Source: Amphibalanus amphitrite (lineage: Eukaryota). From it: a DNA stretch of 64,000 bases. The stretch is taken from the NCBI RefSeq assembly GCF_019059575.1, contig NW_024881521.1, positions 729,297 to 793,296 of the forward strand, written 5' to 3'. Below the pieces are notes generated by a model. That model ran no database searches. It had not been told where the DNA came from and saw nothing but the letters and a program-made list of their open reading frames with translations. Shown piece after piece: positions 12,956-57,590 of this stretch. Numbering within the stretch: position 1 is the first letter of the stretch; the number at the start of each line of letters is the position of its first letter. Position numbers and translations under genes: made by a program.

Positions 12956-13122
12956 TCAGCCGGGCCCCGGCCGCAGCAGCAGCAGCCCAGCTATGCTCAC
13001 GGCCACAGAGACACACATTAAGTCTGCGCGGCGCACCACGCCCGTCGCTGGCGTCGACGCCGACGACGTCAGACCCTCGTTCTTGGCCACGTCGTTCGGG
13101 TGCTTCTTTTTGCCGTACTCGT
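12956..13122 (-). CDS. Ephrin terminal exon: (D)EYGKKKHPNDVAKNEGLTSSASTPATGVVRRADLMCVSVAVSIAGLLLLRPGPG*. The hydrophobic C-terminus resembles a GPI-anchor signal.
   Basis: Minus-strand acceptor cgcctgttccag|AC at 13123-13124, phase-compatible with the 13591 donor (G+AC=Asp). The stop follows the ORF track 12956..13207. There may be a 1-nt ambiguity in my reading near 12900-12960. Confidence 0.5.
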
Positions 13123-13590
13123 CTGGAACAGGCGCAGTGCGTGTGTCAGTCACAAATTTAGAGCTCCCAAGAGCATGAGTTCCAAATTCTGGCAAATCAA
13201 GCTGCACACATCGCCTCGAAACATTGTCACACTAACACATGGGCCGTTGATTCAGTGGGTGCAGCCACTGTCATCCTACGTAACAATAATTATGGACAAG
13301 AATGAGCTCATGTACGAGGCGATTACACATACAAATGCAGATTTATCGCTCTATCATAGGTCTGAACTCTGCAGAGCCCAGATATCCAGGCTTGTCTCGG
13401 GTAATACCCATTCTGAAAATCGGCCCTAAGCCGACCCTGACATCTCTCTGAATACACCAGAGGAGGTGACATCAGCCGCCGTATAGCTCCTTCATCGCTC
13501 ACTCTTTCCAGGGTCACACACATTCGCAGGGACCCAGGGCGTGGTGCCCTCTCCCTCCGTCCCTCCCTCTCTTTTCTTCTCTCCACATAC

Positions 13591-13806
13591 CTTGTTTCTC
13601 TGTGGTGGCCTTGACGTTGATGGTCGGCACATTGTAGCCTCCCTTGTACGAGTGCCGTGGCGTGGGCCGGGCCGTGCTGCGCGGTGAGGACGCGCGCGGC
13701 GGCAGCCACGCCGGCGGCGGCAGCGTCGTCTCCGACACAGCCTCGTCAGCGGGTAACGGCGGCGGCGCCGGCGCCGGTGTCTGGAGACCCGGGCCCGGCA
13801 GCAGCG
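13591..13806 (-). CDS. Ephrin stalk exon: (S)LLPGPGLQTPAPAPPPLPADEAVSETTLPPPAWLPPRASSPRSTARPTPRHSYKGGYNVPTINVKATTEKQ
   Basis: Minus-strand acceptor ttctccctcccccag|CG at 13807-13808, phase-compatible with the 15184 donor (T+CG=Ser). Donor AAG|gtatgt at 13590. The Pro/Ser-rich linker is typical of an ephrin stalk. Matches frame of ORF 13514..13738. Confidence 0.55.
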
Positions 13807-15183
13807 CTGGGGGAGGGAGAACGGACCGTCAGACACGCTGCTGAGACGTGCGAGGAATACGGTCGAGATGCCAAGAATAAGGAAGCAACTGGACTGTGAT
13901 AACGTTATCCAAACTAACAAGATTCCTGCTCTTTATCGGAAGCAAGGCACAAAACAAGCCAAAAAGCGTAAGTTTTTAGAGTCCGATGGGTAATGAATGA
14001 ACACTTGGAACCCCTCAGCTCAAACAAAGAAGCCAGCTACGGAATATCATCCTACACACCATCTTATTCAAGTCACGTCTCGTCATCCCAACAGGGTGTG
14101 ATCACCGCTCTTCACTCAGCCATCCCTCCCCATTGATTCACAGAAGTCCCGATCACACGACAAACAGACACACACACAGACAGCCGACAGCCCTCTGTCT
14201 CATGAGTGAGCAGTCCACGCCAAAATCTGCATCATCCAGCCGACTCCGTAAGTACCATGCACGCGTGGCCAGCCAAATCCGATACGCGACAAACCGTATC
14301 CAGATGTTTGCATCTCCGCAAACCGCGCCGCCGTATATTGAATATCATGAATATCAACATGTGCAAATGTTGGTGTGTCTGGCCGGCCGCATCCTGCTGC
14401 TAACAATGCGCGCCGTGTTTGATGTATAGCTGAGGCGGACCGTGAGGGGTGATGATACCAGCAGTGTGTCATCAATAACATGCCACCGGGGTGCCAGCCA
14501 TGTCACCGGGTGGAGGAGGCGCGCCGACCGGCGGTCATGGGACGACAACCTCGGCGGTGGCTGTGTTTGGTCACACATCTACCGTCTGTCGACTCTACGC
14601 GGTATTCCTGCAGGTTATAGAATAAAAGATTTGGTTTTTATGCACTATTTTGCTACAAACTGTTACCTAAAGCCGTGTCGTACCCTAACCTGGGATCACC
14701 AGACGCCATATTACATATAGTGCAAGTCAGCAGCTAAAACTGTGGTCTGCGAGCCAGTGCGAGATGGTGTGGAGTGGAAGCCCGGTGGGACATTCTGGCC
14801 CGCCCAAACACGCCCCAAGTCGGGAATACCGCGCGGCGCCAACTGCAGGCGAGCGGCGCCGATCGTGCCGTCAGCGGTCACCGTTTACACCAGTCGTGTC
14901 GGTTCGACACATCACCGGCCGGCCTCCGTCCCTGAGGACACCCCTTACGGGTGTTTGCACCGACGAGATTAAACTGAGATGCCATCAATCACCTGGGACC
15001 AAGGCTGAAGCTGCAGGACCATCTACCGTTACGGTTACTCTCCTACGTCAATCCCAATACCCTAGCTAGCTTTAAATCCCACCTAAGGCGAGTGCCTCTA
15101 TATCCAAGCATGGGTCGCTGGTCGTCGCTCAAGCTCACCTGGGCCGCCGTGGTCGGGGATGCGGTTCTGGCTTGTCTCGTTAC

Positions 15184-56428: not shown

Positions 56429-56524
56429 CTCTCTCTCTCTCTCTCTCTCTCTCTCTCTCTCTCTCTCTCTCTCTCTCTCTCTCTCTCTCTCTCTCTCTCT
56501 CTCTCTCTCTCTCTCTCTCTCTCT
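56429..56524. repeat. (CT)n microsatellite, ~48 units
   Basis: Direct reading. Source of the RERERE/LSLSLS ORF artefacts. Confidence 0.95.
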
Positions 56525-57477
56525 TTCTCTTCATCTTTTTCTCTTACACTCTTTCTCTCTAACCTCATTTTGATACGATGCCTGAACAGAGGAACGTTTT
56601 AGGAACAGCTCGGTGATCGTCTAAGACGGACATCGACTTTAGTCCTGAATCACCCTGACGACGATAAATGATGGGTGACGAGTTACACATGTCCATCTTA
56701 TGACCCGATGAACGACGGAGGCAAAGTCTCCTGTTCAATGGGATCCGCTCGAGTTCTCTCGTCTGGGAGGCGAGTATAATCAACGGCGCTTCAGCGTGTA
56801 GAGCTTCGCGGTCCGTCGATTGTGCTTATTTGCCGGCACGGAATTTTGTATAACCGAAATTGGCGAGGCGCTTTGACGAATTTTTGGTCATTTGATACAA
56901 AAACTGTTTTGAGTAGTCCCATCTCTATTATACGATGACGGTGACCACACGACGGTTTCAGCGCCGCGCAAGGAATTCTTTTCGGTTCGTCGGGCTGCCG
57001 GCGTCAGTCAGCATCGGCGTCAGTCAGCGACTGACTGAAGTGGCTGGCCGCCGCGCTGCCCCAAACGTCTACCGCGCGTGGGAGGCGCCAACACGAAGCT
57101 CGTGAGAGAGAGGAGGCCGGCGCGATCGTGTCAGTTTCTGCAGACGCTCCTCGGCGTGAGAAAACACATGTAATCTCGTCAGCGTTCCGGACATATATCA
57201 TCGCTGTCAGATCAGACGCAGGCATTCCCTCGTCGTTAGGTGTCCGTCGATCGGAGAAAGTTATAGCCAATCGCAGCCGCAGAGTAATTGAGTCGTAAAG
57301 AATAAAATATAAATATATTTCCGCCTGGCTGACAGGCTGCTCAGACAACAATGGGAGGAGCGTTTTGCATGCTTGGTCGCCCCGGACATCGTCGAAACAT
57401 AAATCAGAGAGAAATACAATCGCACCCCGCCTTGCTGTCCGATCGTCCGCTTCATCGCATCCCGAGCAGGTACTCAC

Positions 57478-57590
57478 ATGGGGTTGGTTGTGTTCCAGTG
57501 GATGTAGAAGATCTTTGTGGCGGAGGCGCTGCCGCAGAACAGCAGCACTGCCAGCAGCGTCAGCAGCCACTCGGTGGGACCGCGGGCCAT
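57478..57590 (-). CDS. Ephrin exon 1: MARGPTEWLLTLLAVLLFCGSASATKIFYIHWNTTNP (signal peptide plus start of RBD)
   Basis: ATG at 57590-57588 (minus). A hydrophobic signal peptide is followed by IHWNTTNP, the ephrin VYWNSSNP motif. Donor AT|gtgagt (phase 2) pairs exactly with the phase-2 start of the exon at 20220. An in-frame stop follows immediately if unspliced. Confidence 0.65.

Follow-up and report, generated by a model that had tools for sequence, protein, structure and literature searches.

Ephrins of the B class carry a transmembrane helix and a conserved cytoplasmic tail of ~80 amino acids that contains tyrosines and ends in a YKV PDZ-binding motif, and the ephrin G-H loop motif serves Eph binding in the family. 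Non-chordate ephrins have been described as having B-like binding domains and variable anchorage (PMC2405795). In Drosophila, Eph and ephrin are each represented by one gene (PMC4256218), the single fly Ephrin being credited to Bossing and Brand 2002 as that paper cites it. The fly gene is compact (8.3 kb in D. grimshawi); that of Zootermopsis spans 478 kb. For barnacles, a whole-genome duplication has been dated to >247 Mya, and the divergence of four sequenced species, Amphibalanus amphitrite and Pollicipes pollicipes among them, has been estimated at ~247 Mya (PMC11331182). Here we analyzed a stretch of 64,000 nucleotides from A. amphitrite (the window, whose numbering is used throughout), for which a preliminary description had proposed an ephrin gene of six exons on the minus strand.

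The six coding segments have canonical GT/AG borders and compatible phases, and their frame is open to a TGA at 12958-12956. The assembled protein matched the Pfam Ephrin profile PF00812 with E=1.2e-39 and 136 bits (cutoff 25 bits), the match covering residues 25-168, equivalent to profile positions 3-140 of 140, and crossing the exon 1/2 junction. Among solved structures, it matched ephrin-A5, -B2, and -B1 (6e-18 to 2e-14), ephrin-A5 being the best (E=6e-18). The protein-database comparison suggested in the preliminary description returned an ephrin identity, with RefSeq XP_043246439.1 of A. amphitrite at 100%: once corrected as described below, the model showed 100% identity and 100% coverage over 311 aa, with no difference between the two proteins. 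Since they are identical, the gene was already known; its name in the database, "ephrin-A4-like," is an automatic best-hit label that carries no class assignment. A 99%-identical copy on another contig (XP_043230456.1; 3 substitutions) is probably the other haplotype. Splice borders, open frame, profile match, and RefSeq identity bore out the minus-strand gene of six exons, and we are highly confident that positions 11,995-57,590 (minus strand) hold one of the two A. amphitrite ephrin genes, coding for a precursor of 311 aa in six coding exons. The length had been given as ~300 aa, and the exons as first proposed yield 296 aa. No Eph gene was found within the window. The gene itself, an ordinary and already annotated member of a well-understood family, with a correct annotation, is of little import.

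Four of the proposed junctions (57478>20220, 20079>17046, 16878>15267, and 13591>13122) reproduced the RefSeq protein exactly; the basis for all junctions is homology and the RefSeq model, itself a prediction. The first of them joins exons that lie 37 kb apart. The coding part of exon 1 (57478-57590, minus strand, ATG at 57590) encodes a putative signal peptide (MARGPTEWLLTLLAVLLFCGSASA|TK) followed by IFYIHWNTTNP, with which the ephrin domain begins; by inspection, the N-terminus combines a hydrophobic core with an S-A-S-A|T site. A short ORF is located upstream of exon 1 at 57670-57632. Exon 1 matches XP_043246439.1 fully and ends at the donor CAT|GTGAGT in phase 2. Intron 1 (20221-57477, minus strand) comprises 37,257 nt and is of phase 2, the codon AT|A for Ile38 being divided between the two exons, so that the pairing of donor and acceptor phases had been read correctly. 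An intron at the same codon position is found in the Pollicipes orthologue (27.7 kb), in the A. amphitrite paralogue (26.4 kb), and in the ephrin gene of Drosophila grimshawi (5.45 kb). RefSeq identity and this shared position confirm that the distant signal-peptide exon belongs to the same gene, and the 37.3-kb intron is genuine, interrupting the domain at an ancient, conserved site.

We also considered that the exon at 57.5 kb might not be the usual first exon, the N-terminus being supplied instead from within the 37-kb intron, by an alternative first exon or promoter closer to exon 2. The RefSeq models of the Pollicipes paralogue begin with unrelated short first exons lacking HWNTSNP; because of them, such first-exon models, or real alternative promoters, do exist in barnacles. 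Against this, an ephrin domain deprived of exon 1 would lose its first strand, and the Pfam match spans the junction. Moreover, tblastn searches of the window with the N-termini of homologues detected no N-terminal exon closer by, the sole match being 57477-57590 in the HWNTTNP region, and the distant exon 1 ends at the matching codon in orthologue, paralogue, and fly. We therefore regard a nearer first exon as very unlikely, and retain the exon at 57.5 kb as the start of the gene. Weak collinear tblastn matches at 33534-33704 (E=2.6) were examined as an ephrin pseudo-exon and attributed to chance, the frame being filled with stops and the sequence unrelated.

Downstream of intron 1, exon 2 (20079-20220, minus strand; 142 nt) encodes FQISNTDHIIDVNKGNNLFEYDQVTIICPSYSEWTKEEDTEKYIIYN, including C66, and is 84% identical to the Pollicipes DNA, with mismatches falling mostly in one codon phase (3/1/21). 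Exon 3 (16878-17046, minus strand; 169 nt; 89% identical, mismatch phases 17/0/3) contains C94, C107, and the G-H loop region FTITFRSFTPQPGGLEFRPGQDYFFIS. The motifs named in the preliminary description were recovered: IHWNTTNP in exon 1, and FTITFRSF together with GLEFRPGQDYFFIS in exon 3. Exon 5 (13591-13806, minus strand; 216 nt) encodes a Pro/Ser/Thr-rich juxtamembrane linker, and the coding part of exon 6 (12956-13122, minus strand) a conserved HPNDVAKNEGLTSSAS motif, the hydrophobic tail L291-L306, RPGPG, and the TGA stop codon. It is followed by a probable 3' UTR of ~950 nt (11995-12955, minus strand) with four blocks conserved in Pollicipes; the polyadenylation signal AATAAA at 12021-12016 is common to both species, and the putative 3' cleavage site of the transcript would lie ~20 nt beyond this signal.

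The remaining junction, proposed as 15184>13806, was not sustained: the RefSeq protein needs the donor CAG|GTGAGC at 15139, which makes exon 4 (15139-15267, minus strand) 129 nt long and ending in ...GGRCSTHNMKVVFKVCCNETSQNRIPDHGGP. The site at 15184 (GCT|GTAACG), 45 nt upstream, is in frame and possesses a GT, and could serve as a minor alternative donor. It is, however, weaker than the site at 15139, and its use would delete 15 residues (CNETSQNRIPDHGGP), including C170 and an NET glycosylation sequon, giving a product of 296 instead of 311 aa. Across 30 arthropod homologues, neither C169 nor C170 varies. The additional residues are present in the RefSeq protein, in the A. amphitrite paralogue, and in the Pollicipes orthologue, and the alignments with orthologue and paralogue continue through all 15 additional codons of exon 4. 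It is thus extremely improbable that the main transcript ends exon 4 at 15184, and the donor at 15139 is used in the model discussed below. A splice of 37 kb was in this way recovered by reading without tools, while a donor was missed by 45 nt; a check of invariant residues catches errors of this kind.

The receptor-binding domain is predicted to comprise ~145 aa with two conserved disulfide pairs. C66, C94, C107, and C157 aligned with the cysteines of ephrin-B2 and are invariant in the 30 arthropod homologues, in agreement with the four conserved cysteines claimed earlier. The G-H loop FTPQPGGLEF fits the pattern F-[ST]-P-x-x-x-G-[LF]-E-F, aligns with FSPNLWGLEF of ephrin-B2 and FTPFSLGFEF of ephrin-A5, and is invariant in arthropods. 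An AlphaFold2 model built on a 30-sequence alignment had a mean pLDDT of 50.9 and a pTM of 0.30, too poor for fold-level comparison. Bit scores were about equal for ephrin-A5 (68.3) and ephrin-B2 (64.3). Since the two similarities are about equal and the cytoplasmic tail of the B class is absent, the barnacle protein, judged by its sequence, probably falls in neither the vertebrate ephrin-A nor the ephrin-B class.

At the C-terminus, a hydrophobic run of 16 residues (L291-L306) is followed only by the five residues RPGPG, so that the tail characteristic of ephrin-B is lacking. Likewise, five or fewer residues follow the C-terminal hydrophobic stretch in 83 of the 118 scorable homologues (120 in total), and a YKV C-terminus occurred in none of the 120. 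By inspection, the small residues S276-S279, a spacer of ~11 aa, and the 16-aa hydrophobic end have the layout of a GPI signal, and a GPI anchor near S276-A278 is the most likely reading of the shape of this C-terminus. The protein could instead be a type I transmembrane ephrin with a cytoplasmic stub of five residues and no GPI anchor. L291-L306 followed by RPGPG could span the membrane, a helix was modeled at 286-305 (pLDDT ~80, in the model with a mean pLDDT of 50.9), and Mellott and Burke predicted a transmembrane form for insect ephrins. On the other hand, the run has just 16 residues, the preceding S-S-A-S and ~11-residue spacer are those of a classical GPI signal, and cytoplasmic tail, conserved tyrosines, and YKV motif are all absent. 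We thus consider a transmembrane form possible but somewhat unlikely, and favor the GPI-anchored one. The precursor would accordingly be composed of a cleavable signal peptide, the receptor-binding domain, a stalk rich in Pro/Ser/Thr, and a short hydrophobic segment at the C-terminus. By homology, the protein would be located at the cell surface, where its partner would be an Eph receptor tyrosine kinase of an adjoining cell; this contact would trigger contact-dependent repulsion or boundary signaling, as in Drosophila and vertebrates.

The preliminary description had also placed elements resembling conserved non-coding elements (CNEs) in intron 1, together with almost all repeats and transposons of the window, and had seen in this the architecture of a gene with intronic enhancers. 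Comparison with the Pollicipes locus showed that the CNE-like content is real. All 42 blastn matches were collinear and in a single orientation, and a reversed control gave 0. Within intron 1, 27 non-coding blocks totaling 3,956 nt are conserved with P. pollicipes in collinear order; mismatches in the alignment were 3-periodic in exons and flat in phase in the intronic blocks. The strongest intronic element (27234-27483) is 83.6% identical over 250 nt, and its core at 27283-27449 reaches 91.6% identity over 167 nt, at a GC content of 46% versus 61% for the intron. It is non-coding, since its mismatch phases are 12/13/16. A reading of this block as structured RNA was ruled out, no excess stability or RNA-structure signal being detected on either strand (folding z = +0.7 and +0.9), and scans of the entire window for Rfam families and tRNAs were negative. 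The longest intronic block (29643-30396) is 69.6% identical over 773 aligned columns, with mismatch phases 65/78/73. Three blocks cluster at 38779-40001 (38779-38963, 39363-39478, and 39611-40001, the last 74.6% identical over 394), and a promoter-proximal group of seven occupies 50939-55734 (50939-51071, 51657-51771, 52026-52130, 52588-52704, 53910-54017, 55108-55182, and 55612-55734). Two further conserved blocks lie at 61301-61835, at a distance of 3.7-4.2 kb from the ATG on its upstream side; candidate roles for them are those of a distal promoter, an enhancer, and an untranslated exon. They contain TGATTTAT and ATTTGCATAACAA strings, which may be binding motifs.

The 27 collinear blocks lend independent support to the idea of an intronic-enhancer architecture, the enhancers being candidates that were recognized by conservation. 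The most likely role of the blocks in intron 1 would be that of cis-regulatory elements setting the place and time of ligand expression. Conservation by itself assigns no target gene to them, and they might instead regulate neighboring genes, act as insulators, or be exons of an unannotated non-coding RNA. Nevertheless, in both species the blocks keep strict collinearity across the intron of the same gene and its near flanks, they lack coding periodicity or an Rfam match, and the best of them shows no excess RNA structure. These other roles are rather unlikely in our view, and we prefer to see the blocks as candidate ephrin enhancers, a list of which is of use in crustaceans, a group nearly without functional cis-regulatory data.

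The claim on repeats was overstated, as the largest tandem array of the window, a 3.1-kb satellite at 69-3168, lies outside the ephrin gene. Intron 1 does contain micro- and minisatellites, a 229-bp palindrome, and a lineage-specific segment of ~7.2 kb (43738-50938) that has no Pollicipes counterpart, its flanking blocks being 0.7 kb apart in that species. This segment holds minisatellites of 36, 45, 49, and 257 bp and two 258-bp direct repeats that are 100% identical (44394-44651 and 50367-50624). None of the ten largest non-exon ORFs of the window has a Pfam domain, and no ORF of a transposon was detected; the sole match among the ten, to FAM186A, was below threshold (26 bits versus a cutoff of 45.7 bits) and was discarded as an artefact caused by a minisatellite. 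A homologue search with a neighboring ORF found nothing.

The orthologue in P. pollicipes ("ephrin-B1-like," XP_037069879/80) shows 81% protein identity and shares with the A. amphitrite gene the six exons, the position of intron 1, the collinear non-coding blocks, and the polyadenylation signal. It differs in lacking the repeat-rich segment of ~7.2 kb (43.7-50.9 kb of the window) and in having an alternative donor for exon 3, whose use adds RFIGKNA. The A. amphitrite paralogue ("Ephrin-A5," KAF0295801 / XP_043219797; 70% identity) has the same six-exon layout, and its alignment at the DNA level is limited to exons. A sensitive search for the intron 1 blocks in its 26.4-kb intron 1 gave no more matches than a reversed-sequence control, with the possible exception of block 53910-54017, of which two collinear pieces were observed. 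The flanks of the two paralogous loci showed no similarity within 10 kb. In a neighbor-joining tree, built without bootstrap and without chordate ephrins, each A. amphitrite paralogue has a Pollicipes counterpart, and the duplication is therefore older than their divergence. It is compatible with the barnacle whole-genome duplication. Tentatively, the two barnacle ephrins may be duplicates from that event and the ~27 intronic and flanking blocks copy-specific enhancers kept since the split estimated at ~247 Mya, a combined scenario that we find somewhat doubtful.

With the ephrins of vertebrates, the barnacle protein has in common the fold family of the binding domain, the four cysteines, and the G-H loop motif; its presumed anchor type resembles that of class A, and it lacks the cytoplasmic tail of ephrin-B. 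Drosophila Ephrin is 46% identical to it in a full-length alignment and 69-73% over the binding-domain segments of exons 2-3. The fly protein has been described as transmembrane. Both genes share the codon interrupted by intron 1, which is the largest intron also in the fly, and both proteins have a hydrophobic C-terminus without an ephrin-B-type tail, whereas the long N-terminal extension and the long low-complexity stalk of the fly protein are not found in the barnacle. Barnacles have two ephrins and flies one, a difference of possible relevance to the whole-genome duplication proposed for barnacles; if the scenario outlined above is true, it would represent subfunctionalisation, at the regulatory level, of a guidance ligand for which flies have a single gene copy.

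Reading the minus strand directly at the six segments of the preliminary description revealed canonical splice borders and all the motifs quoted there, and their joining generated an open frame of 891 nt (296 codons) that terminates in the TGA at 12958-12956, with intron phases 2, 0, 1, 1 and 1. Exon 4 contained a second in-frame donor at 15139 (CAG/GTGAGC), located 45 nt 3' of the one originally proposed at 15184 (GCT/GTAACG) and fitting the donor consensus far better. Its use adds CNETSQNRIPDHGGP and gives a product of 311 aa, instead of the 300 aa claimed. C169 and C170 were both invariant across 30 aligned arthropod ephrins; since donor 15184 would remove C170, junction 15184>13806 was rejected in favor of 15139>13806, and the other four junctions were retained. 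The 311-aa product matched Pfam Ephrin PF00812 (E=1.2e-39, 136 bits; curated cutoff 25) over residues 25-168, corresponding to profile positions 3-140 of 140, and therefore the ephrin domain is unbroken across the exon 1/2 junction. The closest solved structures were ephrin-A5 (6e-18) and ephrin-B2 (1e-16), with which C66, C94, C107, C157 and the FTPQPGGLEF loop aligned with their counterparts. The top match in a large protein search was XP_043246439.1 ("ephrin-A4-like", Amphibalanus amphitrite, 311 aa), with 100% identity and 100% query coverage; this gene is therefore already present in the annotation, where exon 4 takes its long form. Open frame, splice borders, Pfam match and RefSeq identity confirmed a minus-strand six-exon ephrin gene. 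The initial finding was thus essentially correct but ordinary: a known gene of typical architecture, with one donor corrected.

In tblastn searches of the window with seven homologues, the HWNTTNP N-terminal region matched solely at 57477-57590. Daphnia and termite queries also matched this segment (E about 0.002-0.003) and matched no nearer N-terminal exon in the window. The same six exons were found in the A. amphitrite paralogue (P0003, KAF0295801/XP_043219797; locus L001), whose first intron is 26.4 kb, and in the Pollicipes pollicipes orthologue (P0122/P0002, XP_037069879/80; locus L002), whose first intron is 27.7 kb. In Drosophila grimshawi exon 1 ends in ...HWNTSNSI and exon 2 starts with F, at the same codon as in the window gene, and no intron of this 8.3-kb gene is larger than the first (5.45 kb); the Zootermopsis ephrin gene occupies 478 kb for a 309-aa product. 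These four lines of evidence (the sole N-terminal match and the agreeing paralogue, orthologue and D. grimshawi layouts) argue that the distant 57477-57590 exon really is exon 1, as had been proposed. Given the paralogue, orthologue, D. grimshawi and Zootermopsis genes, a first intron of great length at this site (20221-57477 in the window) is thus conserved among arthropod ephrin genes rather than peculiar to this locus. The HWNTSNP exon is missing from the two RefSeq models of the Pollicipes paralogue (P0005 and P0123), which begin instead with short, unrelated exons; either the distant first exon was missed by gene predictors or alternative promoters exist.

The gene had also been described as having the architecture of a developmentally regulated gene with intronic enhancers. 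A blastn comparison of the window with Pollicipes locus L002 (E<=1e-3) gave 42 matches, in a single orientation and strictly collinear, and the reversed Pollicipes sequence, used as control in the same search, gave 0 matches. Six of the 42 were exons and 27 were located in intron 1, covering 3,956 nt (10.6% of the intron); the others were distributed among introns 2 and 3, the 3' UTR and the flanks, at 2.8 kb 3' of the stop and at 3.7-4.2 kb 5' of the ATG. Within exons 2-4, mismatches were concentrated overwhelmingly in one codon phase (3/1/21, 17/0/3 and 12/3/2, respectively). Their phases were flat in the intronic blocks at 27234-27483 (12/13/16), 29643-30396 (65/78/73) and 39611-40001 (34/38/25), indicating that these are non-coding. 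The best core (27283-27449, 167 nt) was 91.6% identical to Pollicipes, exceeding the DNA identity of every coding exon (84-89%), and its GC content was 46% vs 61% for the intron. Excess RNA folding stability was not found in the best block on either strand (z = +0.7 and +0.9), and neither Rfam nor tRNA scanning of the entire window gave a match. Four sequenced barnacles, including both species compared here, diverged about 247 Mya by one study's estimate (PMC11331182), and the blocks are therefore long-lived conserved non-coding elements. At the level of pattern, these 27 collinear blocks lend good support to the picture of intronic regulatory elements in a developmental gene, and they are candidate enhancers. 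This comparative evidence is the sole mildly new item of the analysis.

The claim that almost all repeats and transposons sit inside this intron was overstated. The largest array in the window, a GC-rich satellite at 69-3168 (39-bp unit, 984-bp higher-order repeats, about three copies), lies outside the gene, about 10 kb past its 3' end, and the ten longest non-exon ORFs of the window yielded no transposon protein domain. A Gly/Ala/Arg-rich ORF of 1,078 codons at 91-3327 (plus strand) was discarded as a spurious product of the 39-bp unit. The 3' flank also contains an inverted repeat at 6119-6337 (60-nt arms, 98% complementary, 99 nt between) and, near it, a pair of 71-nt direct repeats at 5483 and 5585. 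Intron 1 carries (ACAG)n, (TATG)n and (CT)n microsatellites, minisatellites at 46.8-50.0 kb (36- to 257-bp units) and a near-perfect 229-bp palindrome at 33984-34212 (110-nt arms, 98% complementary, 9-nt loop) that looks like a foldback or MITE-type element. A segment of ~7.2 kb (43738-50938) looks like a lineage-specific insertion: the conserved blocks on either side of it are separated by just 0.7 kb in Pollicipes, which lacks a counterpart. Within it, two 100% identical 258-bp direct repeats (44394-44651 and 50367-50624; 5,973 bp apart) bracket the minisatellite arrays, and a perfect 67-nt repeat occurs at 44224 and 44696. The 258-bp repeats lack LTR-like TG...CA ends; the arrangement could have arisen by recent insertion, as a non-autonomous element or through duplication in the assembly.

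At the 3' end, an AATAAA at 12021-12016 (minus strand) lies inside a Pollicipes-conserved block, the hexamer itself being conserved, and three more conserved blocks separate it from the stop codon, which suggests a 3' UTR of ~950 nt. Further downstream, an open frame at 9352-10272 (plus strand), convergent with the ephrin gene, has a counterpart at L002 40218-40961 (minus strand), where the C-terminal motifs DAFLDRLLESPVRRPPP and RWVRDGKVSIVK and the stop codon are kept at the syntenic place. Its mismatch phases (11/4/3) are coding-like; no Pfam domain was found in it, nor any homologue in a word-based search. The frame probably represents the terminal exon of a neighboring gene that is unannotated or undescribed. 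Directly upstream of the ATG the sequence is 70% GC, with a (GCC)n run at 57820-57890 (minus strand), and a 12-codon upstream ORF (ATG at 57670, TGA 57634-57632, minus strand) lies just 5' of the ephrin start; transcription of both depends on the transcription start. The conserved upstream blocks detected by blastn at 61301-61835 contain the strings TGATTTAT and ATTTGCATAACAA, the invariant strings being GTGATTTATAATAATCC and ATTTGCATAACAA. We take TGATTTAT/GTGATTTATAATAATCC and ATTTGCATAACAA to resemble Pbx/Hox and POU/Sox sites, as a lead only. This region may act as a distal enhancer or a promoter, or it may contain an untranslated first exon.

The 311-aa ephrin begins with a hydrophobic leader, after which come a complete ephrin binding domain and a Pro/Ser/Thr-rich stalk; it has three N-glycosylation sequons (N33, N85 and N171) and a motif conserved in arthropods, HPN-[DE]-V-x-KNE-[EG]-LT. 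At the C-terminus, RPGPG follows a hydrophobic end of 16 residues (L291-L306). Among 118 scorable homologues (of 120), 83 have no more than five residues beyond the final hydrophobic stretch, and a terminal YKV occurs in none; therefore, the long conserved cytoplasmic tail that is a hallmark of ephrin-B is absent. The order of small residues (S276-S279), a spacer of ~11 residues and a short hydrophobic end would be that of a GPI-attachment signal, and a GPI anchor seems somewhat more probable than a stub-tailed transmembrane form. As an ephrin, the ligand would engage Eph on adjacent cells. Its expected roles are those described for the one ephrin/Eph pair of the fly (PMC4256218): axon guidance, boundary formation or contact-dependent repulsion.

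A. amphitrite and Pollicipes contain two ephrins each. In a neighbor-joining tree without bootstrap, the window protein grouped with Pollicipes "B1-like" (81% identity) and the second A. amphitrite ephrin with Pollicipes "A5b-like"; independently of the tree, the collinear non-coding blocks prove orthology of the window and L002. Since each A. amphitrite ephrin pairs with a Pollicipes counterpart, the duplication is older than the split of these species, and is compatible with the barnacle whole-genome duplication reported and dated >247 Mya (PMC11331182). Between the paralogous loci, no flank synteny was detected within 10 kb and no robust common intronic blocks were found. A possible counterpart was observed for a sole intronic block, 53910-54017, in the paralogue first intron (L001 15019-15099), in the form of two collinear pieces, one of 36 nt (89%) and one of 22 nt (86%); the remaining matches to the paralogue did not exceed the reversed-sequence control. 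Another A. amphitrite protein on a different contig, XP_043230456.1, is 99% identical to the window protein and is probably an uncollapsed haplotype. The RefSeq labels of the window protein ("ephrin-A4-like") and of its Pollicipes orthologue ("ephrin-B1-like") conflict, and these are best-hit names. The similarity of the window protein to A5 and B2 is about equal; compared with vertebrate ephrin-A and ephrin-B, it is a member of the ephrin family belonging to neither class.
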